From Escherichia phage vB_EcoM_KAW3E185: a DNA stretch of 64,000 nt. The notes beneath the pieces were generated by a model that saw only the letters and a list, made by a program, of their open reading frames with translations, was not told the DNA's origin and made no database searches. Shown piece by piece: positions 1,564 to 25,143 of this stretch (its first letter is position 1; each line of letters begins with the position of its first letter). The DNA is taken from the sequence record MK373782.1; one strand, written 5' to 3'. A program made the position numbers and the translations under genes.

Positions 1564-1644
1564 TTAATTTCCTTTAGACGAGTTATTGTCTTTTGTTTGT
1601 TGATGAACTTATTATACTCCAAATGGGACCGAAGTCCCATTGCT

Positions 1645-2013
1645 TTAATTACCAATTGTATATTTTGCTTTCAAAGTCCAGTCATCTTTCTGTTTAAAAG
1701 AGATAACACGGAAGTTATTAGTCAGGCCAAACAGATCTTCACGAGCAGAGTCTTCAATAACAATCAATCCCCAGTCTTCAAGCAACTGGGCAATCGAATC
1801 ACGTCGCTGATAGTCTTCACCGTTAATATCAACCTGACGTCCATCCATACGCAACATTTCTTTAAAGTGGACGATGTAGTATTTACCTTGCTTTTGGAGG
1901 ATATGACAGGACTGATAAAGAACTTTATCCTTGTTATTAGCGATGCCCATACGGGTCAAAGTCTCTTTGACTTTCAGAAAATCTTCGGGGTTCTTCAATT
2001 TAATTTCAATCAT
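1645..2013 (-). CDS. regA: translational repressor RegA (122 aa)
   Basis: ORF 1645..2022; ATG at 2013 gives MIEIKLKNPEDFLKVKETLTRMGIANNKDKVLYQSCHILQ..., near-identical to recalled T4 RegA and of the same length. Confidence 0.9.
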   Translation of the reverse strand: MIEIKLKNPEDFLKVKETLTRMGIANNKDKVLYQSCHILQKQGKYYIVHFKEMLRMDGRQVDINGEDYQRRDSIAQLLEDWGLIVIEDSAREDLFGLTNNFRVISFKQKDDWTLKAKYTIGN

Positions 2014-2015
2014 TT

Positions 2016-2579
2016 TTACCATTCCAATGCTAATTTTTTAAATTGTTTTTGTTCTTTTACATTTTTTGTAACTTCTTTGAGAAACTCATCAGTGACCATG
2101 GCCTTCAGTTCTTTAAGGACTATTGGCAACTTGTTATTTTTTTCAAGGAGCCGCTTATACTCGGTAGCATCATTCATGTTGATTGTGTAACGTTTCATCA
2201 ACAGTTTGATAACTAGTAACTCTGAAGTGTCTTCGACTAGTTTAGCCCATTTAGAGAATCGACGACCACGTGGAATTGCCGCCATCATATAGTTGAAGTG
2301 CGCTTCATCACTTAATTCAGAACCGACTAAGTTCATCATGTAAACAGCTGGCATACATTCCGGGAACTGGGATAATGAGTTCTCAACCATAAATTTTGAG
2401 TAGTCGACCTGAGCAATTGACATAGATTTCTTTTCATTAATAGCATTAATGATTTTAAAGAATTCATTCTCAGGTTTTTCTTTAAACATGTCAGCACATT
2501 TTTGAATCGCATCAGCGTCATTAGACTTCCATGCAATTTGGTGCTCGTTAAGTTGGACGTCATCATCAAATAAGTTCAT
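2016..2579 (-). CDS. 62: clamp loader small subunit gp62 (187 aa)
   Basis: ATG start; length and position between regA and 44 match T4 gp62. Confidence 0.85.
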
Positions 2580-2580
2580 A

Positions 2581-3543
2581 TTATTTCCAAGACAGTTCGC
2601 AGGTCAGTTGAAGAAGCATATACATAACATGTAATTCAATATTACTTGCTAATCCATGAAACTTATTATTTTCGCCTGCAATTTCATAAAGCGAAATAAT
2701 ACTTTTACCTGGCGCAACTTTGTCATAACACTCAGAAACTAATTTATCGATGAACCATGAATAATCTGCGGCATATTTTGGAGCTAATGCACGAAGCTGT
2801 TTGATATCTTTGTTCTTCATTGCTTCGATAACATCATCTACCGTGCCACGATCATTGGTTACAATCGACAAAATACCTGCATCAAGAACACCTTTAGACG
2901 AGTACTGGTCTAATTGACCAATTGTACGTCGAAAGTCTGGGAAGTTCTTTTTAACCAGAGCTGCAACAACTTTCATATCAGCGATTTCGATATTTTCGTT
3001 CTTACAGATTTCAACCATGCGATGAATCATTTTCTTCATCATTGAGATTTTATCTTCTTCGGTTGGACGTCCGAATTCGATAACTCGACAACGACTACGT
3101 AACGGTTCGATAATTCCATCGATGTTGTTGGCAGTAATAATAATAGAACAGTTACTAGAGAATTCTTCCATGAATGTACGAAGGTGACGTTGTGATTCAG
3201 CGAGGCCACTACGGTCAAATTCATCAATAACAATAACTTTAGGCTTGCCTTCCATTGAGACTGAACGAGCGAATGCAGTTAATGGACCACGCACAAAATC
3301 AATCTTACAATCAGAACCGTTGACGAACATCATTTCGGCATTGATATCATTACATAATGCTTTTGCTACGGTTGTTTTACCGGTACCAGGAGATGGAGAG
3401 TGTAAAATAATATGAGGAAGTTTTCCTTTAGATACTAAAGACTTGAATGTTTCATGGTCATACGCAGGCAGAATACATTCGTCAATGGAAGAAGGACGAT
3501 ATTTCTGTTCTAGAATGTGTTCTTTGGAATTGATAGTAATCAT
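2581..3543 (-). CDS. 44: clamp loader ATPase gp44 (320 aa)
   Basis: Walker A motif [15 protein letters not shown]; AAA+ clamp-loader layout; directly upstream of 62 as in T4. Confidence 0.9.
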
Positions 3544-3618
3544 GTAATTTTCCTCATTATCATTAAACTGGAGGATTTCTCCTCCATAATCGTATCACAA
3601 TAAACGTAAAGCTTTGAC

Positions 3619-4305
3619 TTAGAAGTCGTGAGTAGAATCGGCTTCCATCGCAATAACATAACTTACTTGAGAGCTTTCAAACTTGGCTGCAACTTTATCA
3701 CCAGCTCCCCACAACATTACTTTATAGTTACCTGGCTGGATTTTCATATTAGCCATATTGATTACGAAGTTAAAGTTGTTAGAACCATCATAATCGGTAA
3801 GAGTCAAAGAATACTTAGGACGAGTTAGTCCGGAATCTTCAACTTTATTATAGCCATTGATAACAATTTTACCATCTTTATTTGTAATAGCAATTGTATC
3901 AATCTGAAGACCACGTGAAACTCGAAGCAATTGTTGAAGGTCTTCAGCTTTAATTTCAGTAATCACAGAAGCCACTGGGAATTGAATTGGCTTATTAGGA
4001 AAAACAATGGTGCTCTTGTCGGCAGCAGGCCAATAAACTGTGGAACGTGTATCTGCAATTTTAATATTGCCATCAGTATGCATTGAAATTTCGGCATCAT
4101 CAGACACTAGACTCAAAATGCTTAAGAAGCTATTCAAATCATAAAGTGCTACGTCAAAATCAATTTCATCAGAGATATTTGCTTCCGCATAAGTGGTGCC
4201 ATTAACTGCACGAGTCATAATAAATTTACCTTGACTCAGCAGAATGCCAGAGTTAATAGAGGCAAAGTTTTTCAGAATAGCGATAGTATCTTTAGACAGT
4301 TTCAT
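3619..4305 (-). CDS. 45: sliding clamp gp45 (228 aa)
   Basis: ATG at 4305 gives MKLSKDTIAILKNFASINSGI..., matching recalled T4 gp45 start and length; the ORF track extends 5 codons further upstream. Confidence 0.9.
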   Translation of the reverse strand: MKLSKDTIAILKNFASINSGILLSQGKFIMTRAVNGTTYAEANISDEIDFDVALYDLNSFLSILSLVSDDAEISMHTDGNIKIADTRSTVYWPAADKSTIVFPNKPIQFPVASVITEIKAEDLQQLLRVSRGLQIDTIAITNKDGKIVINGYNKVEDSGLTRPKYSLTLTDYDGSNNFNFVINMANMKIQPGNYKVMLWGAGDKVAAKFESSQVSYVIAMEADSTHDF

Positions 4306-4347
4306 TTTATTTCCTTTCAAGACAATTCAAAGTTTATAACAAATTTA

Positions 4348-4764
4348 TTATGCAGCAACCATCTGCTTTTTAATAGCTTCAGGCAGTGATTCAATATATT
4401 CTGGAATTTTAGAAGCAACAATTTCGCCAGCTGCAATTAGTTGTTCGTCGGCATCAACACAGTAAAAATCTTCAAGGCGTTCAGAACCGTCTTTATCAAG
4501 AACGATTTTAGCACCTGCTTCGATAGAATCTTTATAGTGCTTACGCATCAAATGAATCCACATATCAGACACATCGTTATCAATAAAACCATAAATCATA
4601 AAACGAGTTTCTTGTGGCAAAGATTGGAGTTTTTTAGCACTTGCGTCATCACAATGCAGGACCCATGCTTTACGAACACGATTATGGTTATGCGGGTTAG
4701 CGTCAGTACGGATAGAAGTAACTTTCAGATCAGCAGCGGTAAAACCTTTAGCAGTAGTAAACAT
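4348..4764 (-). CDS. rpbA: RNA polymerase-binding protein RpbA-like (138 aa)
   Basis: Assigned by position between 45 and 46 as in T4; ATG start; sequence identity not verified. Confidence 0.5.
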   Translation of the reverse strand: MFTTAKGFTAADLKVTSIRTDANPHNHNRVRKAWVLHCDDASAKKLQSLPQETRFMIYGFIDNDVSDMWIHLMRKHYKDSIEAGAKIVLDKDGSERLEDFYCVDADEQLIAAGEIVASKIPEYIESLPEAIKKQMVAA

Positions 4765-4776
4765 ATTATTTCTCTC

Positions 4777-4965
4777 TTATTCGTAGAAGTCGGTAACTGT
4801 CCATGCGGAATTGCGATTAGACATTATTTTATTATACTCATCTTTAAAAGCAGATTTGAGCATTTGTTCAGTGACAATATGTTCTTCACCTGAAAACGTA
4901 TTGGTCAAAACATATTTTTTAATTTCAGGGACAACGAGAAGATGTTGTCCAGTTGAATACTCCAT
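4777..4965 (-). CDS. hypothetical protein, 45.2 position (62 aa)
   Basis: ORF 4777..4977; internal ATG at 4965 with GGAGA upstream gives 62 aa, the size of T4 45.2. Confidence 0.45.
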   Translation of the reverse strand: MEYSTGQHLLVVPEIKKYVLTNTFSGEEHIVTEQMLKSAFKDEYNKIMSNRNSAWTVTDFYE

Positions 4966-5019
4966 GTTGTTCTCCATTTAATTTGATGTGGTCATTATAA
5001 CCACATCGTGTTAAAGCGT

Positions 5020-6708
5020 TTATGAAACAGTCATTACCGTAAATCGTCCAACTTTGCTCATTTGAAGATGTTGTCCATAAGCTTGTGGGTCATGGTCTCT
5101 GTGACTAATTATAAACACGTTTGCATCGGTTAGAGAGTTAAGAATTGTTGAAATGGCTTTAATACCTTCGGAATCAGTCGCGGAATCCATGACTTCGTCC
5201 ATAATTAATGTATTGATTCTAACACCAGAGACCTTTTCAGCAATATCTCGCCATGTAAACAACAATGCGATATCGATACGTGCCTTTTCACCTTGACTAA
5301 ATGAAGCATAACTGAACTCTTCACGACCGCGTGATTTTATAGATTCATTGAATTCTTCGTCAATAGAAAACACGTAATCAGCTTCCATGATTTTAAGATA
5401 ATGGTTAATCTGCTTGTTGAACAGAGGCACATATTTTTTAATGATAGCACCTTTAATACCAGAATCTTTTAACATATCTGTGATAATACCACGATGGTAT
5501 TTTTCAAGAACGATATCTGATTTTGTTTTAATGATTTTATCAAGTTCTTTTTGAAGCAAAGCTATCTCATCGGCATGGTCGATAAATTCTGCTGAGGCTT
5601 GCTCTATTGCAGCTTTAACTTTCTTAGCTTTATCAATAGTGGCAATCATTGCTTGTTTCTTGGTACGAATATCAGATGCAAGGTCCTGTTTAGTCTTAAC
5701 ATTAGCTCTATATTCATCAACTAGGACACTCAGATTATCTCTGTGACAGGTAAGTTGCTCGAATGAGTGATTACATTCATGAAGCTTATCGGTAATCTTA
5801 GAGACAATAGGGTCACCCTGGTGCAATTGTGATGCACAAGTAGGACATGTGCCACCGTCATGATACATCTTAATAACTTTGTTATATGAGTCGATTTTAG
5901 ATTTAATCAAGAATGCTTCTTGTCCTATCTTGTTGAATGCCTCAGTAGGGTCTTCATCAAGAACGATATTAAGTAGTCGCTCATTAGCTTCTTCGATTTC
6001 TGCTTTTAATGAACGAGCTTCTTTGGCTAGGTCGTCATACATATTCTGTAGACGCGCTACATTATCACCAGATAATTTCTTTTGACGTTCGATATTCTCA
6101 TTATAAATCTTAATTTGTTGGATAACACCATCTTTCTTGGCATCGAGAACTTGTCCCTGGGAATTAAGTTCTCGAACTTGAGACTTATTGATTTTATCCA
6201 TTTCAGCGAGTGTGCCGACTTCTAAAAGGTCTTCGACAAGTTTTCTACGAGCAGGGGTGCTAAGAGCCATGAAAGGGGTATACCCTGCCGTCCCAAGCAC
6301 AACGATCTGTTTAAAAGACGCGTATGACATTCCGATGCTACGTTCAAATTCTTCTTGGAAGTCACGACTGCTGGCAGATTCATCGAGACGAACACCGTCA
6401 ACGGAGATTTCGAAAATATTGGGCTTTTGGCCGCGTCTAATGAAGTATTTTTTATCATCGAATTCCATCCAAAGCTCAACTAAGAGCTCTTTCTTGTTCG
6501 TGCTATTAATGATTTGTCCTTTCTTAACATCACGAAATGGTTTACCGAAAAGTCCGAAAGTAATGGCTTCTAACATCGTAGATTTACCACCGCCATTTTT
6601 ACCAGTGATTAATGTCTTTTGGACTTTATCTAATTGGATATCAATAGGATTCCCACCTACCGACATGATGTTTTGATAACGAACACGATTTAATTTAAAT
6701 GATTTCAT
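5020..6708 (-). CDS. 46: recombination endonuclease subunit gp46 (SbcC/Rad50-like ATPase, 562 aa)
   Basis: N-terminal Walker A GKNGGGKST; long coiled-coil middle; central CPTC zinc hook; C-terminal ABC signature region; length matches T4 gp46. Confidence 0.9.
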   Translation of the reverse strand: MKSFKLNRVRYQNIMSVGGNPIDIQLDKVQKTLITGKNGGGKSTMLEAITFGLFGKPFRDVKKGQIINSTNKKELLVELWMEFDDKKYFIRRGQKPNIFEISVDGVRLDESASSRDFQEEFERSIGMSYASFKQIVVLGTAGYTPFMALSTPARRKLVEDLLEVGTLAEMDKINKSQVRELNSQGQVLDAKKDGVIQQIKIYNENIERQKKLSGDNVARLQNMYDDLAKEARSLKAEIEEANERLLNIVLDEDPTEAFNKIGQEAFLIKSKIDSYNKVIKMYHDGGTCPTCASQLHQGDPIVSKITDKLHECNHSFEQLTCHRDNLSVLVDEYRANVKTKQDLASDIRTKKQAMIATIDKAKKVKAAIEQASAEFIDHADEIALLQKELDKIIKTKSDIVLEKYHRGIITDMLKDSGIKGAIIKKYVPLFNKQINHYLKIMEADYVFSIDEEFNESIKSRGREEFSYASFSQGEKARIDIALLFTWRDIAEKVSGVRINTLIMDEVMDSATDSEGIKAISTILNSLTDANVFIISHRDHDPQAYGQHLQMSKVGRFTVMTVS

Positions 6709-6953
6709 ATGTATTCTCTTCGAATGAAGTCCTCTACATATTTTAACATGTCATCTCTATCAGCAAAATATTCATCTAGTTCCGCATACATAACAACACC
6801 TGGTGCATACTCGCAAGTAACATACATTGTTCCAAAGAAACGAGGAGTTGATTCCTCGTAATTCTCAGTCCATTCAACGATGCCAATATAACCGTCACCA
6901 ATACTAAATTCATGACGATGGATTTCATAATCAGTCTTCGTCATTATACGCAT
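6705..6953 (-). CDS. hypothetical protein, 46.1 position
   Basis: Small ORF between 47 and 46; ORF-track start is TTG, first ATG at 6953. Confidence 0.45.
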   Translation of the reverse strand: MRIMTKTDYEIHRHEFSIGDGYIGIVEWTENYEESTPRFFGTMYVTCEYAPGVVMYAELDEYFADRDDMLKYVEDFIRREYI

Positions 6954-7188
6954 CCTCAATACACGCTTCAGCCATTTTAAGAATAGAGCCGGGAGTATCG
7001 TTGTCCATTATATTAAAGCTAAATTCAATAGCCCAGTCGGTGCAGACATGAACTGCTTTAACTTCATTGCCTTCAACGCGTAATGGCTCAATCCAATACT
7101 TGATAGTGTTCTCGAATCCATCATCGTCTTTAACGTCCATTTCAACTTCAAGTCCAAGCCCAGCATTATTAAATTCATCTAAAGTCAT
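6931..7188 (-). CDS. hypothetical protein, 46.2 position (85 aa)
   Basis: ATG start; overlaps stop of gene 47 (ATGA-type junction). Confidence 0.5.
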   Translation of the reverse strand: MTLDEFNNAGLGLEVEMDVKDDDGFENTIKYWIEPLRVEGNEVKAVHVCTDWAIEFSFNIMDNDTPGSILKMAEACIEDAYNDED

Positions 7189-8204
7189 TGTGTTGCCTCA
7201 ATATAAAGTTCGTTGGAATATTTGACCAGCGCTTCTCTGTCTTCGTCTGAGATATCTGGAATCGCGTCAATATATTCTTTAATGATATCTTGAAGTGATT
7301 TAATCTCGATTTCCTGGTCATCATCAGATTCAACACTGTTATCAACTTTAGAAACCATACGAAGAGAGTGAACTACTTTTTCAAGTTCAGATTCAAACTT
7401 AGTCAACTCTGAATCAATTTCTGATACTATAACACGTACGGCTAGATTAGTATAATCAGAATAATTGATTTTGCCTTTAAACGGATAAGTGATTCGTCGA
7501 TGCCATGTTGTTTCATTAGGAATAAATTCCATACGTTCAACATCAGTGTCAAATACCCAGAATCCGCGCGGGTCGTTCTCATCGCCTGCAGTAAGGGTCC
7601 ATGGTGTCCCAATATATTTGACGTTAGCAGCTTCAGAGATTGTGTGGAAGTGGCCGGACCAGACTTGTTTATAGGTCTTTAAGAAATCAGGTTCAAGCCC
7701 ATGAGACTTCATTCCTTTATAGAAATAAAAGCCATTCAGTTCCCAGTGCCCAACACAATACGCTGCGGAAGAAGTCTTGATGTGCTCTAAGATTTCACCT
7801 GTATTTTCTTCACACATCCATGGAACGATATCAATCAGACATCCGTCAAAATCTACAGTAGTTGGATGTTCGTAAATAGTAAAGTTTTCAAATTGAGTTA
7901 ACAATTCAGAAACAGTGTTAGGTGTTATTGTATTCTTAAACGCCATGTCATGGTTTCCTATCGTGACATGAACGTGAATGCCTGCTTTAGAAATCATATC
8001 AACGATTTCACGATTGAATTCCATTGTACGATGTGTTATTGCTTTACGGACGTCAAACCAATCACCATACTGAATCCAAGTTTTAATCCCGTGTTTCTTA
8101 GAGTATTCAATTGCTTGACGAATACCATCACGTTGAATATCTTGAACCCATGGGTCGTCTTGTTTGACTCCGATATGGAAGTCGCCTAAGTGCAAAATTT
8201 TCAT
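7185..8204 (-). CDS. 47: recombination endonuclease subunit gp47 (SbcD/Mre11-like, 339 aa)
   Basis: Calcineurin-like phosphoesterase motifs (LHLGDFH near N-terminus, GNHD, GHWE, GHFH); length matches T4 gp47. Confidence 0.9.
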   Translation of the reverse strand: MKILHLGDFHIGVKQDDPWVQDIQRDGIRQAIEYSKKHGIKTWIQYGDWFDVRKAITHRTMEFNREIVDMISKAGIHVHVTIGNHDMAFKNTITPNTVSELLTQFENFTIYEHPTTVDFDGCLIDIVPWMCEENTGEILEHIKTSSAAYCVGHWELNGFYFYKGMKSHGLEPDFLKTYKQVWSGHFHTISEAANVKYIGTPWTLTAGDENDPRGFWVFDTDVERMEFIPNETTWHRRITYPFKGKINYSDYTNLAVRVIVSEIDSELTKFESELEKVVHSLRMVSKVDNSVESDDDQEIEIKSLQDIIKEYIDAIPDISDEDREALVKYSNELYIEATQ

Positions 8205-8250
8205 ATTATTTCCTCATTAGTTAATTCATTTTATCATCCGTTTATAAAGC

Positions 8251-8274
8251 AAAAAAGGAACTCCGAAGAGTTCC
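8251..8274 (-). terminator. rho-independent terminator (minus-strand RNA)
   Basis: Hairpin GGAACTC-ttcg-GAGTTCC followed on the minus-strand RNA by a run of six U (plus-strand A-run 8251-8256). Confidence 0.5.
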
Positions 8275-8447
8275 TATCCACATAGTACACCGTACAGAGG
8301 CTCATTTGAACTTTTAAATCGAATGGGCTTGTATGTAATAGTTCCTTCGGCTTTAGCTTTATCATAAGACTCTTTAAAACGTCTCATTCTTTCTGCTTTG
8401 CCTTTACGGATTTTATCGAAATTTTCAGAAGTCGGGATGTTCGTCAT
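8274..8447 (-). CDS. hypothetical protein (57 aa), 47.1 position
   Basis: ATG at 8447 preceded by GAGAGGTG; below the 60-aa ORF-track threshold; stop codon abuts the terminator hairpin. Confidence 0.4.
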   Translation of the reverse strand: MTNIPTSENFDKIRKGKAERMRRFKESYDKAKAEGTITYKPIRFKSSNEPLYGVLCG

Positions 8448-8486
8448 GCATAAGCACCTCTCAGAAAATGCCTAAATCAATTTCTC

Positions 8487-8693
8487 TCATCGTTTCCACC
8501 ATTTCTTAACTTGAAATGAATCGACCCACACGAGTTGTTTTGGGTCTGCCTTTACAATAGGCGGACAAATTTCTGTAATAGAACCGTCGTGATATTCCTT
8601 TTCAGAAATTTTAACACAAAGAGGACCTCCCAATTTAAGGGTGAACCCTGCGTTCAGCTTCAGACGTTTAAACTTTGTTTGAACTAGCGCCAT
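8487..8693 (-). CDS. hypothetical protein (68 aa)
   Basis: ORF 8487..8708 starts at TTG; first ATG at 8693. Confidence 0.4.
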   Translation of the reverse strand: MALVQTKFKRLKLNAGFTLKLGGPLCVKISEKEYHDGSITEICPPIVKADPKQLVWVDSFQVKKWWKR

Positions 8694-8991
8694 TAATGAT
8701 GTCCTCAATAGCCTGACGAGTAGTAACCCACTGGATTTTAATTAACTTGTCATTATATGGTTGTCGTAGAATATCCCGAGATTTCTTAATAGCATATTCG
8801 TAAGCTTCGAAGTTGTTTTGAATTGCTGCTTCTTGAGCATGAGCATAAAGGCGGTTTAGTTCAAAACGATTCTTTTTAAGAATCTTTTCGGATTTTTTAC
8901 GTGCTTCAGCTTCATTTTTCTTTTGGATTTCTTGTAGCATTTTAGCTACTGCATCTTCTGTTTCTTTATTTTCAATAATCTCGGTAGTCAT
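8668..8991 (-). CDS. hypothetical protein (107 aa), charged and helical
   Basis: ATG start; sits where T4 carries alpha-gt and its flanking small ORFs. Confidence 0.5.
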   Translation of the reverse strand: MTTEIIENKETEDAVAKMLQEIQKKNEAEARKKSEKILKKNRFELNRLYAHAQEAAIQNNFEAYEYAIKKSRDILRQPYNDKLIKIQWVTTRQAIEDIINGASSNKV

Positions 8992-8992
8992 A

Positions 8993-9208
8993 TTATCTCA
9001 TTAAATTAAAATAAAAACGTCCATCCTCTTCAATACAGAACTCATACTCAACCGGAGTCCCATTTATCGAAAATGACACGTCATGTGGGTTCAAAGGGTC
9101 GATGTCAAAATTAATTTTAAATTCACGACCCAACAGTTTTACTAAATAAGGGATTGCTTCGTCAAAAGGTTCTTCTAAGTAGTTAGAGATGTCAATTGTC
9201 ATCCTCAT
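8993..9208 (-). CDS. hypothetical protein (about 71 aa)
   Basis: ORF 8993..9286 overlaps the end of gene 55; internal ATG at 9208 chosen. Confidence 0.4.
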
Positions 9209-9749
9209 ATAAAAAATCCAAACTAGGCGAATCGCTAACAACTTCCTTCTTTTCAGCCCCAGGAGCTTTATAAGCGGATTCTTCATAATGCGTCATTTTA
9301 TCGTAGATGTCTTGAATAAACGTTTCATCTACCAACGCTACCATATCATCGTCATGACTGTCGTAGACATTATGAACGAAGTAACTATATTTCTTTGCAA
9401 CTTCCTTACGTTCTTTTTTGATACGTTGGACAAAAGCATTAAAACAAGCTCGAGTTATGTATGCATGTGGGTTATTGTACTTAGTTTCGTCGAAATTATG
9501 AAGTCCCTTAATAGAGGCTTCAATCCCATCTGCAATCATCTCCTGCTTCCAAGACTGGGTATATCCTGAAAAGTTGAAACGTTTAGACAGGCCTTCGGCA
9601 ATAAGCATAATTGCTAAACCGATGGTATCATTCTGACGAATAATTTTGTTTGGGTCTTTATTATTTAAGAGCTCCTTTTTCCACTCGATTATAGCGGCGA
9701 GAAGCTCTTTATTATTCACATAGTTATTTTTAGGTTTTTGTTCAGTCAT
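9192..9749 (-). CDS. 55: late-transcription sigma factor gp55 (185 aa)
   Basis: ATG at 9749 preceded by GAGG; translation [35 protein letters not shown]... matches recalled T4 gp55 and its length; ORF-track start at 9767 is TTG. Confidence 0.9.
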
Positions 9750-9821
9750 AAGTACCTCTTGGCTCAATTCATAGGTCTATTATATCATAATATTTAGAGA
9801 CCTATCTTAAAGCACGAGATA

Positions 9822-10091
9822 CTATCGGAGCAAACAATAAGCCTGAAACACCTTTTTCATTAAACGTTTGAACTCATAGATATCGATATAAAGCTCAGTA
9901 AGACCGGCGTTATAAAGAAAATCTAAAAAGTTCTCATGCGTTTCGTTATAGTCGCCTTCATTTAATTGAGATACATGAGTTTCCCAAAAACCAACACCTT
10001 TAACGAATGGAAAATACGTGACTTTCATGTATTCGTCAACATAAAATTCGCCCAGATTTTCTTCAGTTATACTGATTCGAGTTAATTTCAT
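9822..10091 (-). CDS. hypothetical protein (89 aa)
   Basis: ATG start; part of the small-ORF block between 55 and nrdH. Confidence 0.5.
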   Translation of the reverse strand: MKLTRISITEENLGEFYVDEYMKVTYFPFVKGVGFWETHVSQLNEGDYNETHENFLDFLYNAGLTELYIDIYEFKRLMKKVFQAYCLLR

Positions 10092-10315
10092 TCTAGTTCC
10101 TTTGCTGCTTCAAGAGCAGCATCCAGTGAATCAAATTGGTCAACGAAATCAATATTCAACGCATCGTCAGCCGTAGCATATAACCACCATTGTTTGAATT
10201 CGTATTCTAGGATAAATCCGGGCCCTTCAATCTGAGGAAGACCTAGGCTATTTGTACCAACTTCGTAACCAGCTAGACGCAGATCATTAATCAAAGTTTC
10301 TGTTAATACGCTCAT
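10088..10315 (-). CDS. hypothetical protein (75 aa), acidic
   Basis: ATG start; 4-nt overlap with the downstream gene. Confidence 0.5.
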   Translation of the reverse strand: MSVLTETLINDLRLAGYEVGTNSLGLPQIEGPGFILEYEFKQWWLYATADDALNIDFVDQFDSLDAALEAAKELE

Positions 10316-10644
10316 TTTACCGCCTTAACAATTTTTAAGTCAACGAATTTTTTCTTACGTTGATTTTTCATACGACGGATAGTCTTTTCAGAGATTTCAT
10401 GTTTCTGATAAGCTTTAGATTCAACACCAAATGCAGCAACGTCAAATTCAGAAAGAATATATTGTACTAGAATTTCACGAATAGAATTACGTCCAATTTT
10501 CTGGTCGTGTTTTTGCATGATTTCATAAAGACGGAATTCCAACGCATCAAGAACTTGAGGAGTAACAATATTGCCAGATTCCAGAAGAGCAACAACTTTA
10601 TCGAAAGCGAAAGAATTAACTACGTTTTTGATTTTAGTAGACAT
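10312..10644 (-). CDS. hypothetical protein (110 aa)
   Basis: ORF-track start at 10674 is TTG; ATG at 10644 is preceded by GAGGAA. Confidence 0.5.
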   Translation of the reverse strand: MSTKIKNVVNSFAFDKVVALLESGNIVTPQVLDALEFRLYEIMQKHDQKIGRNSIREILVQYILSEFDVAAFGVESKAYQKHEISEKTIRRMKNQRKKKFVDLKIVKAVK

Positions 10645-10675
10645 ATTATTTTCCTCGGTTATTTTATTATCCAAC

Positions 10676-10711
10676 GAGAGAATTATACTCTGCTCTCAAG
10701 AGTTTGTATAC
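10676..10711 (-). promoter_or_regulatory. sigma70-type early promoter (minus strand), -10 TATAAT
   Basis: Minus strand reads GTATAC-18nt-TATAAT; the 35-bp core is repeated at 39018..39052. Confidence 0.5.
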
Positions 10712-10950
10712 TATTTTTTAAGCATGAAAAGCAAGTAATTTGTATCGCGTGGAGTAATATCAACACCCATATCAAAGATGCCTTTATAGATTGGGTATTT
10801 GTTTTCGGTTGTATCGAAGCTGAAACTATTTCCATCACAACTAACAGTAATAGCATCTGTTAAAATGTCATACTCAATCCTAACAATTGAATCCCCAATT
10901 TTAACGTCGAGGTGTTTTTTGAATTTGATAAAATCTAATTCTTGGGCCAT
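10711..10950 (-). CDS. hypothetical protein (79 aa)
   Basis: ATG start. Confidence 0.5.
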   Translation of the reverse strand: MAQELDFIKFKKHLDVKIGDSIVRIEYDILTDAITVSCDGNSFSFDTTENKYPIYKGIFDMGVDITPRDTNYLLFMLKK

Positions 10951-10970
10951 GATATTTTCCTCATTTTAAG

Positions 10971-11010
10971 ACGATAGGAAGATAATAACATGTCTTCCTA
11001 TCGTTGTACA
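10971..11010 (-). promoter_or_regulatory. early promoter with 12-bp inverted repeat flanking the -10 (minus strand)
   Basis: Minus strand reads TGTACA-ACGATAGGAAGA-catgtTATTAT-TCTTCCTATCGT, then a Shine-Dalgarno sequence and ATG. Confidence 0.5.
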
Positions 11011-11013
11011 TTA

Positions 11014-11214
11014 TTAACCGAACTTTTTAGCGCCTTTCCAGCCTTCGTACATAACTGCACAAGTCAGTAGTACAGCGTGCTGGCATTCTTTGTATTTGTA
11101 AATCCAGAACCAGCGTAAGAAGTCTTCATCCTCAACGCCGTTGAGTTTCATATTGGCAAAGAATTCGGCACGTTCTTCACGAAGCTTTTGCGATAACATA
11201 GATTCAGGATTCAT
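11014..11214 (-). CDS. hypothetical protein (66 aa)
   Basis: ATG start. Confidence 0.5.
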   Translation of the reverse strand: MNPESMLSQKLREERAEFFANMKLNGVEDEDFLRWFWIYKYKECQHAVLLTCAVMYEGWKGAKKFG

Positions 11215-11345
11215 TTTGTGTTCCAGGCCCCATTTTCATCGATGAACTTAATCCAGTCATTTACAGACCATTTAGTTGTATCACCCTTTGGATTAACATT
11301 TAAAGTATATAATCCCTGCTTAAAAAGCATTCGTTTGATATTCAT
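11211..11345 (-). CDS. hypothetical small protein (about 44 aa; start uncertain)
   Basis: ORF 11211..11438 overlaps the upstream gene; ATG at 11345 follows GAGGAAA and the upstream stop. Confidence 0.3.
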   Translation of the reverse strand: MNIKRMLFKQGLYTLNVNPKGDTTKWSVNDWIKFIDENGAWNTK

Positions 11346-11352
11346 AATTTCC

Positions 11353-11646
11353 TCAACTGTAACGATAACATTCGTTAGCTTTACGTTTGGCTTCAGTATG
11401 AGAAGTATTATAATCATACTCTTCTTTACTGTAAACATCTTTTTTCAACTTACGAACTTCTTTGCGGAGTTGTCGATTCATTTCATTCTTGACTTCAGAA
11501 TCAACGCCTTTCATACGTTTCCATTTATCTGAGCGGAAGATGTTTTCAACCATGTCTTTGTGGCTAACACCGTCAGGAGCTTTACGCTTACCAAAATAGT
11601 CGTAATCGCGAACTTTCAAATCTTTACGACGATACGTTTTACCCAT
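11353..11646 (-). CDS. hypothetical basic protein (about 97 aa)
   Basis: ORF-track start is TTG; ATG at 11646; Lys/Arg-rich. Confidence 0.4.
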   Translation of the reverse strand: MGKTYRRKDLKVRDYDYFGKRKAPDGVSHKDMVENIFRSDKWKRMKGVDSEVKNEMNRQLRKEVRKLKKDVYSKEEYDYNTSHTEAKRKANECYRYS

Positions 11647-11653
11647 AAGTACC

Positions 11654-11902
11654 TCAGAGGTTGATTGATACAACGCGTTTGATAAAATTCACTTCACTTA
11701 CTGAAAGGTCTTTAAGACCGATTGATTCTAAACGCTGAGTAAGCGTCAACATCGGGATATAATCCCAATGAGTTTTAGTTGCTTGATAAGTACGAACTCC
11801 ATTAGCAATTTCAACGTTCAAATCGGAAATGGTAATGAATATCGGACGCTCGTCATTAACTTTAAGGGTTAGAACAACTTTCTTTGAATCTAAACTAATC
11901 AT
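11654..11902 (-). CDS. hypothetical protein (82 aa)
   Basis: ORF from the six-frame track, tiling with its neighbours. Confidence 0.45.
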   Translation of the reverse strand: MISLDSKKVVLTLKVNDERPIFITISDLNVEIANGVRTYQATKTHWDYIPMLTLTQRLESIGLKDLSVSEVNFIKRVVSINL

Positions 11903-12081
11903 GACTTAATTTCCTTCGCAATTGAACAGAAGATACCACGGTCACAAAGCATTTCACCAATTTCTGGATATTTGATTGAATGGTACCAAACATCCAGGCT
12001 TGAAACTCTGGTTATCTGTACTGCATTACCGTTGACAGAATAGTACTGGTCAACCTTAATTTCTTTATCTTCAATTGTCAT
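11899..12081 (-). CDS. hypothetical protein (60 aa)
   Basis: ORF 11899..12243 includes intergenic sequence; ATG at 12081 preceded by AGAGGAAAA; a GTTTAC-type promoter-like sequence lies upstream (about 12110..12143). Confidence 0.4.
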   Translation of the reverse strand: MTIEDKEIKVDQYYSVNGNAVQITRVSSLDVWYHSIKYPEIGEMLCDRGIFCSIAKEIKS

Positions 12082-12217
12082 TTTATTTTCCTCTATAGTA
12101 GATGGTTTAATCTTAACACATTTATTGAGGATGTAAACTGTTTTATGAAAATATTTTTTGATTTGAGAGGGGCACAAGGAGATAGTGAAGTGAAGATTCC
12201 AATGGATTATATTAGAA

Positions 12218-12249
12218 ATGAGATAAAGAAGACCAGGCGGCACCTGGTC
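12218..12249 (-). terminator. rho-independent terminator (minus strand)
   Basis: Hairpin GACCAGG-tgccg-CCTGGTC followed on the minus-strand RNA by a U-rich tract; overlaps the nrdH-like stop. Confidence 0.45.
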
Positions 12250-12571
12250 AATCTTCTATGATATCAGAGTCATATCCTAATGAAATCAAGGACTTTTTAA
12301 ACTCTGCAATATTCTTTTGTTTCTTATCATTTAAAAATATGACAGGATAACGAATATTAAGTGAAGTGAATCCTGCACGTTTAGCAAGAGATACGATTAA
12401 AGGACGGTCATATTCAATCTTACCATTATTAGTGAGGACTTTATAAAATGTATAAGGAGCATTGAGCTCCTTTAAAAGTTTTGTAACAGTATAACATCCT
12501 GGACAACGTCCAACTTCTTCAGGGATGCCATAAATTTCAATCTTGTTCTTTAAGTTCGAGTTTTGTTCCAC
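12248..12571 (-). CDS. nrdH: glutaredoxin/NrdH-like redoxin (about 107 aa)
   Basis: CPGC active-site motif (IYGIPEEVGRCPGCY); probable GTG start at 12571 with AAGGAA upstream; no in-frame ATG. Confidence 0.5.
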   Translation of the reverse strand: MEQNSNLKNKIEIYGIPEEVGRCPGCYTVTKLLKELNAPYTFYKVLTNNGKIEYDRPLIVSLAKRAGFTSLNIRYPVIFLNDKKQKNIAEFKKSLISLGYDSDIIED

Positions 12572-12854
12572 GAGAAATAATTCCTTGGTAAGCCCAATAA
12601 GGAGGATTAACAGAATCCTCACCAGAGTTTTCTTCAGGAAAATAAACCTGGATAACGAAGCCGGATTCATCAAAGGTAAAATAAACCGTAGGCAATTCAC
12701 CTAACAATTCGGCACGAGCATTAATTTCTTCTAGATCTCGTTCACGTCCAGCCCAAAAACTAGGATTTAGATTACATTCGTAAAAATAATAGTCATTACC
12801 GAACATATCAAAACCCTTCCAACTCTCTACCACATACCGCTCAAAACTAATCAT
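12537..12854 (-). CDS. hypothetical protein (105 aa)
   Basis: ATG start. Confidence 0.45.
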   Translation of the reverse strand: MISFERYVVESWKGFDMFGNDYYFYECNLNPSFWAGRERDLEEINARAELLGELPTVYFTFDESGFVIQVYFPEENSGEDSVNPPYWAYQGIISRGTKLELKEQD

Positions 12855-12856
12855 AA

Positions 12857-13072
12857 TTAAGCCTTTTTATCAAGAACAGAATTCAGTTTATTAGTAATTT
12901 TGTCCAAACGTTCATTGAATTCGCTGGAGGATAAACCCTTTTCTGGAGAAATTAAACTAATCACGAAAAATACACCAGTAAAAGGAATAAGAAAAATAGC
13001 TCCAACTGCCATAAACAGAAAGAATGTTACAGTTGTAAGAAAATCAGCTAAACCTTTACGAAATTTATACAT
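12857..13072 (-). CDS. hypothetical small membrane protein (71 aa)
   Basis: Hydrophobic stretch FLFMAVGAIFLIPFTGVFFVISLI; ATG start. Confidence 0.45.
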   Translation of the reverse strand: MYKFRKGLADFLTTVTFFLFMAVGAIFLIPFTGVFFVISLISPEKGLSSSEFNERLDKITNKLNSVLDKKA

Positions 13073-13190
13073 TTACATTTACCTTTAATTGATTAACCAA
13101 GCATTGATAATCATTAAACTATATTGCGAATAAAATTCTGGACCAAAACGAAAAATCATATCATTTATAGTATCCATAATGTAATTCAAT

Positions 13191-13661
13191 TTAATCATGT
13201 TTCCACACCCCATCGGTATTTGACCAAAGTCGCTGATTATCTGATCCTCGCCACAGCTTTTTAGTCGGAAGATTTTTCTCATACTTCCCATCAATAATAA
13301 CATCAACATATTTAAGCATTTCTAGTTGTTTAATATCTTCAAACTTATATCCTGTCCACAACCAAATGCTTTTATTGGGATAAAGATTTTTTACTGTTTG
13401 AGCAATGCGATGAATAACATCTCGGTTATCAGGATAGAGAGGGTCTCCTCCGGTTATAGTTAATCCTTCTATATAATCATTATTCAAACATTCAATCAAT
13501 TGTTCTAGTGTCTCTCCAGTGAATGGAATACCATTTCTAGCATTCCATGTTGATTTATTATAACACCCTTCACATTTATGCAAACAACCTGTAACGAAAA
13601 GAACGACCCTGCATCCAGGGCCATTCACAAAGCAGCACGGGTATATTCTGTCATAATTCAT
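13191..13661 (-). CDS. nrdG: anaerobic ribonucleotide reductase activating protein NrdG (156 aa)
   Basis: Radical-SAM-type cysteine cluster CLHKCEGC; ATG at 13661 gives MNYDRIYPCCFVNGPGCRVV and the T4 NrdG length; start overlaps the upstream stop (ATGA). Confidence 0.9.
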   Translation of the reverse strand: MNYDRIYPCCFVNGPGCRVVLFVTGCLHKCEGCYNKSTWNARNGIPFTGETLEQLIECLNNDYIEGLTITGGDPLYPDNRDVIHRIAQTVKNLYPNKSIWLWTGYKFEDIKQLEMLKYVDVIIDGKYEKNLPTKKLWRGSDNQRLWSNTDGVWKHD

Positions 13662-14488
13662 AATAATATCCAATTTTTCCAAGCTTCATCAGTAGAATTA
13701 CAGCGTTTTAGTATAAGATGTCTAGAAACTTTTATGGCATTTGAGCACTTTTTAATTGAATCATACTTAATACCGTCAACTGAAACGGTTTTGCTAGTTG
13801 GAGAAATTTTTCCATACATTGGATTTTTTGAACCAACTTGAAGTCCTTTTAAAGCTTTTGAAAGCTTTTGTCTAGATTCCAATGACATGGGAGAATTCTT
13901 TTTACCTTCAATAATTCGCTTGCGATGAAGTTCGCGTTCTTCTTCACTCAAAGAATTGTAATATTTTTTAACACCGTTTGATATAGATAATTTATCTTTC
14001 TCAGACCGCTCTCCAGCTAATTTACTTCTAACATCTTTTCGCTTCATAGCTATGCTTACGGCTTTATTTAAATTTGCTTGATGCTCTGGCGTACGTTTAT
14101 ATTTCTTTAAAGCACGTGAAATAGCTATTTTAGTTTCTTCTGTTCTCTTTTTACCTTTATTTGCTAAACTATTTTTGCGGCGATGTTCAAGTGTCTGTTC
14201 ATAGGCAGTTCCACCTTTTCCACCAGGTTTAATATTATATGTATTTTCTTTTAGACAATACTCTTCGGTTACGAGTTCAGCTTCTTTATCATACATTTGC
14301 TTTTCATTATCAAAAACATATAAAATTTCTTTATAAAAATTTTTTCTACCATATTTTAATAAAGCAGCACGAATCAATGTTCCTGATCCCATATAACCGT
14401 CATTTATGTTATCGGTGCTATGCGCACCGATATATTCCTTTGAATTAATTATATTTGTTATTTTATAAATTATATAATACCTATGCAT
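13658..14488 (-). CDS. free-standing GIY-YIG homing endonuclease (276 aa)
   Basis: N-terminal motif YYIIYKITNIINSKEYIGAHS (GIY...YIG); basic C-terminal repeats typical of Seg/I-TevI DNA-binding regions. Confidence 0.8.
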   Translation of the reverse strand: MHRYYIIYKITNIINSKEYIGAHSTDNINDGYMGSGTLIRAALLKYGRKNFYKEILYVFDNEKQMYDKEAELVTEEYCLKENTYNIKPGGKGGTAYEQTLEHRRKNSLANKGKKRTEETKIAISRALKKYKRTPEHQANLNKAVSIAMKRKDVRSKLAGERSEKDKLSISNGVKKYYNSLSEEERELHRKRIIEGKKNSPMSLESRQKLSKALKGLQVGSKNPMYGKISPTSKTVSVDGIKYDSIKKCSNAIKVSRHLILKRCNSTDEAWKNWILL

Positions 14489-15760
14489 GTTTTACTCGTT
14501 TTACCATTTCTTTCATTTTACCTAAATTCCATGGGACAACGCTAGGAGTTCCAAGATATCCGCATGTTCTTCTTATGGTATTCATCTTTTTAGGATCAGT
14601 TTCTCCACAAATAGAACAAACAAATCCGTTTTCAGTAGGAGTCATTTCATGGGTACTTCCACATGTAAAACATTTATCCACTGGCATATTAACACCAAAA
14701 TAATCTAAATGTTGTGCAGCATAATCCCAGACGGCCTCAAGCCCCTTTAAATTGTTTTTCATATCTGGAAGTTCAACATAAGAAATGTGACCGCCTGTCG
14801 CAATGAAATGATATGGGGCTTCGCGAGAAATCTTTTCAAACGGAGTGATATTTTCTTCTACTGAAACATGGAAACTGTTAGTGTACCATCCTTTATCGGT
14901 AACATCTTTTACACTTCCATATTTTTCAGTATCAAGTTTACAGAAGCGATAGCAAAGGTTTTCAGCAGGAGTAGAATACAAGCTAAAAGCAAAACCGGTT
15001 CTTTCGGTCCACTGCTTAAGACGAGCATTCATTTTAGTTAAAATTTCTTGTCCAATATCACGACCGACAAGAATATTCAATTCGTGAATACCGATGTATC
15101 CTAGGGACACTGAACTTCTACCGTTTTTAAATAACTCAATTATATCATCATCAGGTTTAAGACGGACCCCAAATGCACCTTCTTGGTAAAGAATAGGAGC
15201 AACAGTAGCTTTAACTCCTTTTAAGGAACTAATTCTACACATCAAGGCTTCAAAGCACAGATCCATTCGTTCATTAAATAACTCAACAAATTTCTGTTCA
15301 TTGAACTGTGTTCCAATATAAGAATCTAACGCGATGCGAGGAAGATTCAGTGTTACAACGCCAAGATTATTACGTCCATCAAGAATTTCATTACCAGTCG
15401 AATCTTTCCATACACTCAAGAAACTACGGCAGCCCATTGGAGAAACAGGAACTGAAGAACCGGTAATAGCTTTATTATTCTTAACCGAAATAATGTCAGG
15501 ATACATTCTTTTGCTTGCACATTCTAACGCAAGTTGTTTAATATCATAGTTCGGATCATCTTTATAAAGATTAACACCTTCTTCAACAAACATAACAAGT
15601 TTAGGAAAAATAGGAGTTATTCCATCACGACCAAGACCTTTAATGCGGTTTTTAAGAATTGCCTTCTGAATCATTCGTTCAGTCCAGTCAGTTCCCGTAC
15701 CAAATGTAATTGTTACAAAAGGCGTTTGTCCGTTTGAACTAAAGAGAGTATTTACTTCAT
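14481..15760 (-). CDS. nrdD: anaerobic ribonucleotide reductase NrdD, exon 2
   Basis: Encodes EVNTLFSSNGQ... to the C-terminal glycyl-radical motif RRTCGYLG; joining to exon 1 at the inferred splice sites gives 605 codons, the T4 NrdD length. Confidence 0.85.
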
Positions 15761-16805
15761 CATTATATTCAGCATGAGTCGCAAATTCATGCTCGTTTAT
15801 ATGAAACAACAAAATTTGGATAGTCCATAGATATGCAACGTTCTTTTATAGTGCTAGGATGAAAATTTAGCGCTTTAGCTGCTTCTATATAAGACGTATA
15901 CTTAATACCGTCAACAACCACATATTCAGGAACTTTATGAATAGTAGTCTTAATACTCAAAACAAGAGGATGAGTTTCGACTTCACTTTCAGTGCAATTT
16001 AAATATTCCGCTGCTTTTTTAAAACTTCTAAAAGTTTTATTTTTAAGCTTTATCGATACTTGTTTTTTACTTTTTCGACTATTGATATTATTTTGCACAT
16101 GTTCCTTAGATCTTCCGTTTTTAGCATAATATTCAGCTACAGAAGATTTTATATTGTTTTTATGAGATTCGGATAACACTTTACCCTTATGAGCATCTCT
16201 TAATTTTTGAATATGTTCTTCAGTATCCGGATGCTTATAAAACTTTTTACCGCCTATGGATTTATTTAAACATTTTTTGCTATAAAAATATTTACGTATG
16301 ACCTCTTCTTCATGTTTTAATGCATCTTTATAACTATCAAATGTTTTTAAAATTATCCATTTAGTAGGTGTATCAGTTTTTAAGCGTTCATTTATATACT
16401 TAGATGACGTTGTGTAAGTTTTCCAGTTTGTGGGCTTATTTTTAATTGTTCTAAATTTTTTATAACCGATATAAATGTCGCCATTAGAAAACTTAACTAA
16501 GTATGTAAATGCGTCTTTATCTTTTATTTTAGTACAACGTCTTTTTATCCATTTCATTGTTTCACCTCGTATTCATAAGATAATCTTATTTATACAAGAT
16601 GACTGCTGCATGTCGCCATGCAGATTAGACTATATCTTCATCTTTCGATGCCGGCCGTTTCGAATAGCATTAGCTTCTATTCTACACCGCTACATTCATC
16701 ACGGTTAGTCGTTAGGCATTTAGTTCAAAAGAACATTTAGCACGGGATTGTCTACTAGAGAGGTTCCCCGTTTAGACCGGTTTTACATGAGCCTGAATTA
16801 AATTA
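15761..16805 (-). mobile_element. group I self-splicing intron in nrdD (1045 bp)
   Basis: Minus-strand core CTAAACGGGGAACCTCTCTAGTAGACAATCCCGTGCTAAAT at 16735..16775, which I recall from T4 group I introns; 5' exon ends in U, intron ends in G; in-frame stop follows exon 1. Confidence 0.8.
15787..16557 (-). CDS. intron-encoded homing-endonuclease-like protein (256 aa)
   Basis: ATG start inside the intron's 3' extension; degenerate GIY-YIG-like N-terminus (FTYLVKFSNGDIYIGYKKF); Lys-rich with a helix-turn-helix-like C-terminus; no HNH cysteine pairs. Confidence 0.65.
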   Translation of the reverse strand: MKWIKRRCTKIKDKDAFTYLVKFSNGDIYIGYKKFRTIKNKPTNWKTYTTSSKYINERLKTDTPTKWIILKTFDSYKDALKHEEEVIRKYFYSKKCLNKSIGGKKFYKHPDTEEHIQKLRDAHKGKVLSESHKNNIKSSVAEYYAKNGRSKEHVQNNINSRKSKKQVSIKLKNKTFRSFKKAAEYLNCTESEVETHPLVLSIKTTIHKVPEYVVVDGIKYTSYIEAAKALNFHPSTIKERCISMDYPNFVVSYKRA

Positions 16806-17343
16806 ACTCATACGCCTGGAATGCGTCATAGACATCTTTTTCTGTTTTAGATTGAGCATAATTCAACGCATCAGCGATTTGCCATTTTTCTGCATCCTCA
16901 ATATGTTTTGCATAGGTGCGTTTAACATAAGGAGAAAGTACTTTATCTACATTAGCAAAAGTCGTTCCGCCGTATTGATGGGAAGCAACTTGTGCAGTAA
17001 TTTGTGCCATAATTGCAGTAGCAACACCAATAGATTTAGGCGTTTCAATTTGAGCATTGCCTAATTTAAATCCATTCTCAAGCATCCCCTTTAAATCGAC
17101 TAAACAGCAATTGGTAAACGGAAGAGCAGGAGAATAATCAATATCATGCATGTGAATGATTCCGCGTTCATGCGCATTCATAATAAAAGACGGGACCATA
17201 TTTTTGGCAATGTGTTTAGACACAATACCAGCCATAAGGTCCCGTTGAGTTGGAAAAACACGAGAATCTTTATTAGCATTCTCGTTCAAAAGATCTTTAT
17301 TAGTTTTATAAATTAATCCTTCAATTTCTTTTTCAATTTTCAT
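16806..17343 (-). CDS. nrdD: anaerobic ribonucleotide reductase NrdD, exon 1
   Basis: MKIEKEIEGLIYKTNKDLLNENANKDSRVFPTQRDLMAGIV... matches the recalled T4 NrdD N-terminus up to ...DAFQAYE. Confidence 0.85.
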
Positions 17344-23573: not shown

Positions 23574-23861
23574 CTAAAAGAAACTTTTTTCGGTATTTTT
23601 TCCACTGAACCAAACAGACTTCGGGATTTTTTGTAATTTTTCAGATTTAAGTTTCTCTTCCTGTTCTTTCTTATATACACCCTTGTCGTACTGGAGCACC
23701 TCTATGGCATTCTTTTGCAAACGATCTAAGGTAATTAAGGCTTTAGTTTTTCCTTTCAAGGAAGAGTCCTGGCGAACCTCCTCGCTATATTGCATTGTAG
23801 AACTAACCATACGATGAGCATACAGTTCTACTGCGGCTTTAATTTTTTGCATAAAATCCAT
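23574..23861 (-). CDS. hypothetical protein (95 aa)
   Basis: ATG start. Confidence 0.45.
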   Translation of the reverse strand: MDFMQKIKAAVELYAHRMVSSTMQYSEEVRQDSSLKGKTKALITLDRLQKNAIEVLQYDKGVYKKEQEEKLKSEKLQKIPKSVWFSGKNTEKSFF

Positions 23862-24468: not shown

Positions 24469-24684
24469 ATCTGAGAATACGTCAACGTCGTCGATTAAGA
24501 GAACGCTGTCTGCATCACGGTTGAGCCAAAGTTGTTCGTAAAGGCCAATACCGGAGATTTTACCATACTCGCTTCAATAAGATTCACTATGCCGTTTACC
24601 ATGTTATAGGTAAACATCGGATAATTGTATTGTACTACAACATAAGCGATAAGCAAAAGTTTCATTTTGTTCTCCGTTCGTTTT

Positions 24685-25116: not shown

Positions 25117-25143
25117 AACGTTCTCCTCTAGTAAGTAAGGTTT

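Follow-up and report, generated by a model that had tools for sequence, protein, structure and literature searches.

The 47-55 interval of Escherichia phage vB_EcoM_KAW3E185 has the RB69-type layout without an alpha-glucosyltransferase gene

Genes and signals between 47 and 55

The window analysed here is a stretch of 64,000 nucleotides from Escherichia phage vB_EcoM_KAW3E185 (MK373782.1). All relevant genes are carried by its minus strand; in the direction of transcription, gene 55 forms the upstream flank of the interval under study and gene 47 the downstream one. The features of the region are listed below, by position within the window.

5020-6708, minus strand: gene 46; 46.1 and 46.2 are found between 46 and 47
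7185-8204, minus strand: gene 47, recombination nuclease subunit of the SbcD/Mre11-like type (339-aa ORF; Pfam Metallophos; annotated 47 in relatives)
8211-8215, minus strand: Shine-Dalgarno sequence GAGGA, 6 nt upstream of the gene 47 ATG (read from the sequence and the alignment)
8228-8251, minus strand: site resembling a T4-type middle promoter (MotA box TGCTTTA, 11 nt, -10 element TAAAAT)
8246-8275, minus strand: hairpin and T-run resembling an intrinsic terminator (stem from 8275 to 8256, UUCG loop; terminator scan)
8274-8447, minus strand: a-gt.2 orthologue, 57 aa (Pfam DUF5486, 4.5e-28; phrog_2140, full length)
8487-8693, minus strand: a-gt.3 orthologue, 68 aa (phrog_1648, 1.6e-34, full length)
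8668-8991, minus strand: a-gt.4 orthologue, 107 aa (Pfam DUF2654, 5.8e-28; phrog_951)
8993-9208, minus strand: a-gt.5 orthologue, 71 aa (Pfam DUF5491, 5.8e-13; phrog_1169)
9192-9749, minus strand: gene 55, late sigma factor gp55 (185 aa from the ATG; annotated 55 in relatives)

The first 17 nt of a-gt.5 are shared with the end of gene 55. The products of genes 47 and 55 share 100% and 99.5% amino acid identity, respectively, with RB69 gp47 and gp55. Between them, the interval holds only the terminator-like hairpin and the four small genes; the terminator, the coordinates and the four ORF lengths (57, 68, 107 and 71 aa) given in the original prediction, made from the sequence alone, were all found again in the ORF list and in the terminator scan. 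The gap from 47 to 55 measures 987 nt, versus 3152 nt in T4 (NC_000866), where, as the same prediction had correctly stated, the alpha-gt gene (1203 nt, 400 aa) lies between the two. Its central claim, that alpha-gt is missing from this place, was borne out, as a tblastn search with T4 alpha-gt gave no match at E <= 10 in 8205-9208. When T4 alpha-gt, 47.1 and mobB were used together as tblastn queries, nothing was found in the 47-55 interval.

The four small ORFs were compared with the T4 proteins by tblastn, with identities of 76% for a-gt.2, 71% for a-gt.3, 58% for a-gt.4 and 47% for a-gt.5, and each match spans essentially the whole protein. Matches to protein families (DUF5486, phrog_1648, DUF2654 and DUF5491, from Pfam and PHROGs) run end to end as well, all to families of unknown function; for the a-gt.3 orthologue the Pfam scan returned no family. 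A split or fragmentary alpha-gt, which would have overturned the prediction, was rejected on these grounds, all four ORFs being full-length orthologues of a-gt.2 to a-gt.5 that match their own families. No paper naming these genes was found in the literature searched, and in spite of their names nothing demonstrable links them to glucosylation.

Distribution of the layout among T-even phages

By megablast, region 7000-10200 of the window matches Mosigvirus records at 98.5-99.7% identity, NicPhage, APCEc01, JK42 and mar005P1 being among the close ones, with a query coverage of 80% or more in 146 records. Positions 1-13661 are colinear with RB69 31788-45447, at 97.0% identity and with no large indel, and blocks colinear with RB69 are found across the window at 86-98%. 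In the 47-55 interval RB69 (NC_004928 / AY303349; RB69p066-p071) shows the same gene order (47, a-gt.2, a-gt.3, a-gt.4, a-gt.5, 55), the same spacer and no difference from the window; elsewhere, the window departs from it by an nrdD intron, an extra endonuclease gene, a 3-kb deletion, and diverged baseplate and short-tail-fibre genes. NicPhage (OY726582), a chemically characterised Mosigvirus, has the same layout and is 99.7% identical over 7000-10200; its identity is 98.4% over the first 10.5 kb, and its coverage of the first 25 kb is only 92%, so that the two phages are not the same. The best record matches over 25-kb pieces of the window reach 96-98.6%, and no record matches the window as a whole. 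Identity and colinearity with RB69 were thus found together with the order 47/a-gt.2-5/55, free of alpha-gt, 47.1 and mobB; judged by its sequence, the window is that of a mosaic Mosigvirus (RB69-like T-even phage), a new member of the genus.

An identical layout, 47/a-gt.2-5/55, is annotated in RB69, mar005P1 and NicPhage, and the alpha-gt-free interval is very probably the standard arrangement of the whole genus, present in about 150 records. The absence of the gene here was already known, since it belongs to the long-published RB69-like layout and is annotated in the RB69 GenBank record. On this comparison, the missing alpha-gt is a genus-wide state and no peculiarity of the KAW3E185 genome.

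T4 (NC_000866) has the order 47, 47.1, alpha-gt, mobB, a-gt.2, a-gt.3, a-gt.4, a-gt.5, 55. Phages of the T4 and T2 types share with the window genes 46, 46.1, 46.2, 47 and 55, the a-gt.2-a-gt.5 block (47-76% amino acid identity) and a cassette of hairpin, MotA box and -10 element, whereas T4 differs by the presence of 47.1, alpha-gt and mobB (about 2.2 kb) between cassette and gene 47, and RB32, a T2-type Tequatrovirus without mobB, by that of 47.1 and alpha-gt at the same place. The chemistry differs too, being glucosyl-hmC in Tequatrovirus and arabosyl-5hoC in the RB69 type. The Dhakavirus JS98 likewise lacks alpha-gt and has the same a-gt.2-a-gt.5 block with a very similar spacer (TTTTTTGCTTTATATTCGGATGATAAAATGAAC), but retains the small 47.1 gene between spacer and 47. 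The alpha-gt gene itself was found in 657 phage records, which, by organism name, are T4-type coliphages and Klebsiella phages at about 66% identity.

That the gene is missing, and nothing further, would also agree with a loss confined to this single genome, whether through a recent deletion or as an error of the assembly, the phage otherwise glucosylating hmC like T4. This can be given practically no weight. The 201-nt junction between 47 and a-gt.2 is 100% identical to that of RB69, and 159 independent phage records share it over 80% or more of its length, the number of records at 90% identity or better being 126, which excludes both a private deletion and an assembly artefact at this point; the same figures dispose of the case, foreseen in the original prediction, of an intact alpha-gt at this site in an error-corrected assembly. 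Moreover, colinearity with RB69 extends over all of the leftmost 13.7 kb of the window, each of the four flanking ORFs is intact, and no trace of alpha-gt could be detected. It is also very unlikely that any of the small a-gt.x proteins acts in DNA glycosylation in place of alpha-gt, as their names and their position beside alpha-gt in T4, the only points in favour, might suggest: with 57-107 aa they fall far short of the size that a GT-A or GT-B fold requires, their matches are to DUF or unknown-function families only, and they are kept alike in glucosylating Tequatrovirus (T4, RB32), in arabinosylating Mosigvirus (RB69) and in Dhakavirus JS98, so that their presence does not track the sugar chemistry.

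DNA modification in RB69-like phages and in KAW3E185

The original prediction had proposed a search for glycosyltransferases over the whole genome. No alpha-, beta- or beta-alpha-gt was recovered by tblastn, either in the window or in complete RB69. Within the 64-kb window, the sole match of T4 alpha-gt was a marginal one (E 0.016), to the 207-aa e.5 homologue at 37737-38360; T4 beta-gt and RB32 beta-alpha-gt had no homologue there at E <= 0.05. When the complete RB69 genome (167,560 nt) was searched with the same three proteins, no match at E <= 0.05 was obtained except, again, e.5 (E 0.042). The e.5 alignment covers 69 aa, with 19/69 identities and a 9-residue gap; the protein matches no Pfam family, its PDB matches are only flavodoxin-like, at E of about 0.5, and T4 also has e.5 beside a genuine alpha-gt. 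The similarity was judged to be due to chance or to a generic alpha/beta-fold resemblance.

All 53 window ORFs of at least 150 aa were mapped to RB69 1-95 kb, where 49 have a counterpart. The other four are two homing-endonuclease-like ORFs, an ORF of 154 aa with no known function and a 308-aa ORF near the right end. No glycosyltransferase domain was found by Pfam in these four, nor in 12 large window ORFs of unknown function; the nrdC.3-like (316 aa) and nrdC.6-like (331 aa) proteins, both also present in T4, had no Pfam match. A transferase elsewhere within the window thus found no candidate among the ORFs mapped or scanned. For RB69, the lack of T-even glucosyltransferases had also been reported from BlastP searches (Thomas et al. 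2018, PMC6024577).

The modification of the RB69 type has been described in the literature. RB69 DNA carries arabinose instead of glucose, and ORF003c (gp3) was proposed as a GT-B arabinosyltransferase (Thomas et al. 2018, PMC6024577). LC-MS/MS and NMR then identified its cytosines as 5-hydroxycytosine in mono- and di-arabinosylated form, and not as hydroxymethylcytosine (Lee et al. 2026, PMC13326640). According to the same work (PMC13326640), gp48, a thymidylate-synthase homologue, is the 5hodCMP synthase, the dNMP kinase gp159 phosphorylates 5hodCMP, gp46:47 and gp3 are proposed as first and second arabinosyltransferases, and gp50-gp55 as the source of the sugar donor, presumed to be UDP-arabinose; gp46:47 is one ORF, which a sequencing error has broken in two in the RB69 record. 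Arabinosyltransferase activity was demonstrated for the DLP3 homologues gp76 and gp77 only, and only together (PMC13326640). NicPhage DNA contains mono- and di-arabosyl-5-hydroxy-dC, and the phage is restricted by BrxU, an enzyme of the GmrSD family (Durham-collection paper, PMC13390438). In RB69, gp46:47 lies beside the gene-42-like enzyme, at the old beta-gt/42 locus, and gp3 beside rIIA, between rIIA.1 and 39.

NicPhage has the RB69-type gene set for arabinosylation in full, encoding gp3, gp45, gp46:47 (fused, 289 aa), gp48, gp50, gp51, gp52:53 and gp55 at 97-100% amino acid identity to RB69 (99% for gp48). Its modification cluster spans about 1.2-8 kb beyond the left edge of the window, with its end about 1.2 kb short of the equivalent of window position 1, and is followed by the DNA polymerase gene, which runs into the window-equivalent region; gp3 lies, in the relatives, about 28 kb beyond the same edge. 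By tblastn, no homologue of gp48, gp46:47, gp3 or gp50-55 was found within the 64-kb window, the loci of the relatives being beyond its left edge. The only published component of the pathway inside the window is the following.

44242-44976, minus strand: gene 1, dNMP kinase (Pfam DNMK, 7e-96; 95.5% amino acid identity to RB69 gp159)

The ability of the gene 1 product to phosphorylate 5hodCMP is putative, the activity being that of RB69 gp159 (PMC13326640). By analogy with the relatives, a thymidylate-synthase homologue of the RB69 gp48 type would make 5-hydroxy-dCMP, which the dNMP kinase would then phosphorylate; after incorporation, the putative GT-B arabinosyltransferases gp46:47 and gp3 would add one or two arabinoses, from a nucleotide sugar made by the phage itself through the gp50-gp55 cluster and thought to be UDP-arabinose. 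A glucosyltransferase would not be needed, because RB69-like phages, to judge from those characterised, make no glucosyl-hmC. Judging from the modification genes of the relatives, there are strong grounds to expect that KAW3E185 makes arabosyl-5-hydroxycytosine, and a Mosigvirus layout combined with this base, its enzymes being encoded elsewhere, is in all probability the right explanation of the interval.

Of the genome, about 168 kb in size, the window covers no more than about 38%, and a T4-type glucosyltransferase encoded in the remainder would leave the DNA glucosyl-hmC. Such a relocated gene is highly improbable, as complete RB69 contains none (tblastn, E <= 0.05, apart from the 69-aa marginal e.5 match), in agreement with BlastP (PMC6024577), the DNA of both RB69 and NicPhage carries arabinose derivatives and not glucose, and the RB69 counterpart of gene 42 (gp48) is only 25% identical to T4 gp42 by tblastn and makes 5hodCMP. 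It is improbable, too, that the modification module of this phage differs from that of RB69, for example by lacking gp3, with mono-arabinosylated DNA as the result, or by including an extra transferase. An atypical module is conceivable because the window is mosaic, no record exceeding about 96-99% over 25-kb stretches; in addition, related genera have the gp46:47 type only (67-69% for the matches in JS98-like, Klebsiella and Enterobacter phages), and homologues of gp3 occur in Mosigvirus and Acinetobacter phages alone. However, gp3 at 95% identity or better was found in 155 phage records and gp46:47 in 153, both near the counts for the junction (126 and 159); this agreement points to the presence of both genes in practically all Mosigvirus records.

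Which host defences are able to recognise a T-even phage depends on how its DNA is modified; examples are type IV enzymes (GmrSD/BrxU), glycosylases that act specifically on glucosyl-hmC, CRISPR-Cas, and restriction-modification of the classical kind. The modification also influences the ease with which a phage is engineered. The suggestion that the missing gene bears on modification-dependent restriction agrees with the sensitivity of NicPhage to BrxU (PMC13390438). The suggestion that the DNA is modified differently from that of T4 stands for phages of this layout, RB69 and NicPhage being arabinosylated, but its premise, that the modified base is hydroxymethylcytosine, is outdated for the genus (PMC13326640). 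As to a transferase carried elsewhere, the relatives do encode the non-orthologous gp46:47 and gp3, but no relocated alpha-gt (tblastn on the RB69 genome; PMC6024577). In practice, KAW3E185 may be annotated as an RB69-type phage, with arabosyl-5-hydroxycytosine expected rather than glucosyl-hmC. That RB69 lacks both alpha-gt and beta-gt has been published, and so have the modification with arabinose and the genes for it (2018-2026); no open question is advanced here in their regard.

A hairpin and promoter cassette upstream of gene 47

In the direction of transcription, the spacer between a-gt.2 and 47 reads: a-gt.2 stop, hairpin and T-run, TGCTTTA-N11-TAAAAT, GAGGA, ATG of gene 47. The hairpin begins within the a-gt.2 stop codon. 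The terminator scan gives it as AGGAACTC-UUCG-GAGUUCCU, from 8275 to 8256, followed by TTTTTTGCTTT; its 5' arm can also be written AGGAACUC, the structure then being AGGAACUC-UUCG-GAGUUCCU and the T-run. The predicted folding energy is -15.4 kcal/mol, with a z of -2.6 versus shuffled sequences, and the site is annotated as 'terminator' in several relatives.

The pattern TGCTTTA-N11-13-TANNNT, which we take to be the consensus of T4 middle (MotA-dependent) promoters, occurs 6 times in the window, versus 1.2 expected. From 8251 to 8228, a MotA box (TGCTTtA) was found about 12 nt upstream of a sigma-70 -10 element (TAnnnT); both elements are invariant in six aligned T-even spacers, and the RB69 genome has motA and asiA. 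Positions 8228-8251 are best described as a putative T4-type middle promoter dependent on MotA/AsiA, the roles of promoter and terminator being assigned from consensus-level matches. On the T4 model, the hairpin would end the transcripts of 55 and the a-gt.x genes, and the MotA/AsiA-dependent promoter would re-initiate transcription for 47-46.

The same series of hairpin, TGCTTTA, TAAAAT and Shine-Dalgarno sequence is found upstream of different genes: 47 in the window and in RB69, 47.1 in JS98, alpha-gt in RB32 and mobB in T4. The ATG of gene 47 occupies here the position of the alpha-gt ATG in T2-type phages, with the same hairpin, promoter and Shine-Dalgarno region upstream, and GAGGA of the window aligns with the Shine-Dalgarno sequence upstream of alpha-gt in RB32. 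Both T4 and RB32 have a second cassette (GGGC-TTCG-GCCC, AGCTTTA, TATAAT) downstream of alpha-gt, before 47.1 and 47. Two copies of the cassette, about 45 nt long, thus bracket alpha-gt (and 47.1) in Tequatrovirus, and a single copy is present at the same site in Mosigvirus and Dhakavirus; relative to T4, what is absent from the window is exactly the module of 47.1, alpha-gt and mobB, second cassette included.

Cassettes combining a stem-loop and a promoter (PeSLs) are the proposed agents of modular shuffling among T4-like phages (Arbiol et al. 2010, PMC2839356; PMC4122927). The spacer resembles them in that a stem-loop is directly followed by a promoter, at module boundaries, and in that the arrangement recurs on either side of a variable gene, which is alpha-gt in T4 and RB32. 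It differs in that PeSLs were defined with early promoters, in genomes of the RB49/phi1 type, whereas the motif in the window is of the MotA middle type. It may be speculated, quite tentatively, that the cassette could serve as a recombination substrate for gain and loss of the alpha-gt module in T-even phages. If this were true, the shuffling model would extend from early to middle promoters, and would reach a gene that sets the restriction and defence profile of the phage.

Cassette repeats, a putative arabinosyltransferase and a weak similarity to alpha-gt

A cassette composed of a UUCG hairpin and a MotA-box middle-promoter-like site (TGCTTTA, then a -10 element) flanks alpha-gt, the T4 alpha-glucosyltransferase gene, on both sides in T4 and RB32, and is found as a single copy in the window, in RB69 and in JS98. 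The cassette regions are the following:

T4 comparison sequence, 21576-21645 and 23671-23750
RB32 comparison sequence, 2497-2590
Window, 8195-8290

Its repetition around alpha-gt could support recombination by which the alpha-gt module is gained or lost.

The RB69 reference record (24597-25497) divides the first putative arabinosyltransferase of the RB69 cytosine-modification pathway between two ORFs, p046 and p047, a split which has been explained as a sequencing error (PMC13326640). In agreement with this explanation, the Mosigvirus NicPhage carries a single, unsplit ORF of 289 aa (29356-30225 of the NicPhage comparison sequence).

A weak similarity to T4 alpha-gt (residues 18-86) was observed within residues 37-96 of the e.5 homologue, located on the minus strand at 37737-38360. 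The two segments share 19 of 69 residues, with an E value of 0.016 when searched against the window. No Pfam family was assigned to the e.5 homologue, and its PDB matches were only flavodoxin-like, with E about 0.5; the similarity is probably due to chance, or to a generic alpha/beta fold.

Insertions in the nrdG-nrdD region

An insertion of about 1.04 kb, at 15768-16807 on the minus strand, interrupts nrdD; the RB69 gene is intronless and lacks it. The features of this region are listed below.

14481-17343, minus strand: nrdD, host gene of the insertion
16606-16837: group I intron in the insertion (Rfam Intron_gpI, 71.6 bits)
15787-16557: GIY-YIG/NUMOD1 endonuclease ORF in the insertion, 56% identical to T4 I-TevII
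13658-14488, minus strand: 276-aa ORF between nrdG and nrdD, carrying a NUMOD3 motif together with a DNA-binding domain of the I-TevI type

The Rfam scan of the whole window did not return the Intron_gpI match, which emerged only from a separate scan confined to the 1.4-kb region. The gene and its intron are colinear with those of T4 over their full length, at 83% nucleotide identity. The 276-aa ORF is probably a free-standing homing endonuclease; RB69 has no counterpart of it. In T4 the same slot is occupied by mobC, an unrelated HNH gene.

Deletion, variable region and divergence relative to RB69

A deletion of about 3 kb, corresponding to RB69 54522-57508, maps at about 24557-24566. The genes lost are the 5' part of nrdC.10, ORF102c, nrdC.11, ORF104c, mobD.1 and most of tk.1. 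All that is left of nrdC.10 is its C-terminal part, as a 155-aa ORF at 24001-24468. A variable region, upstream of two tRNA genes (41199-41352), contains a further ORF:

39989-40453, minus strand: 154-aa ORF, for which RB69 1-95 kb gave no match and Pfam no family

At 56322-61238, on the plus strand, the genes for the baseplate and the short tail fibres are far more diverged from RB69 than the remainder of the window. Amino acid identity is 75% for gp9, 80% for gp10, 72% for gp11 and 64% for gp12, against mostly 93-100% elsewhere in the window, which suggests a mosaic exchange of host-recognition modules.
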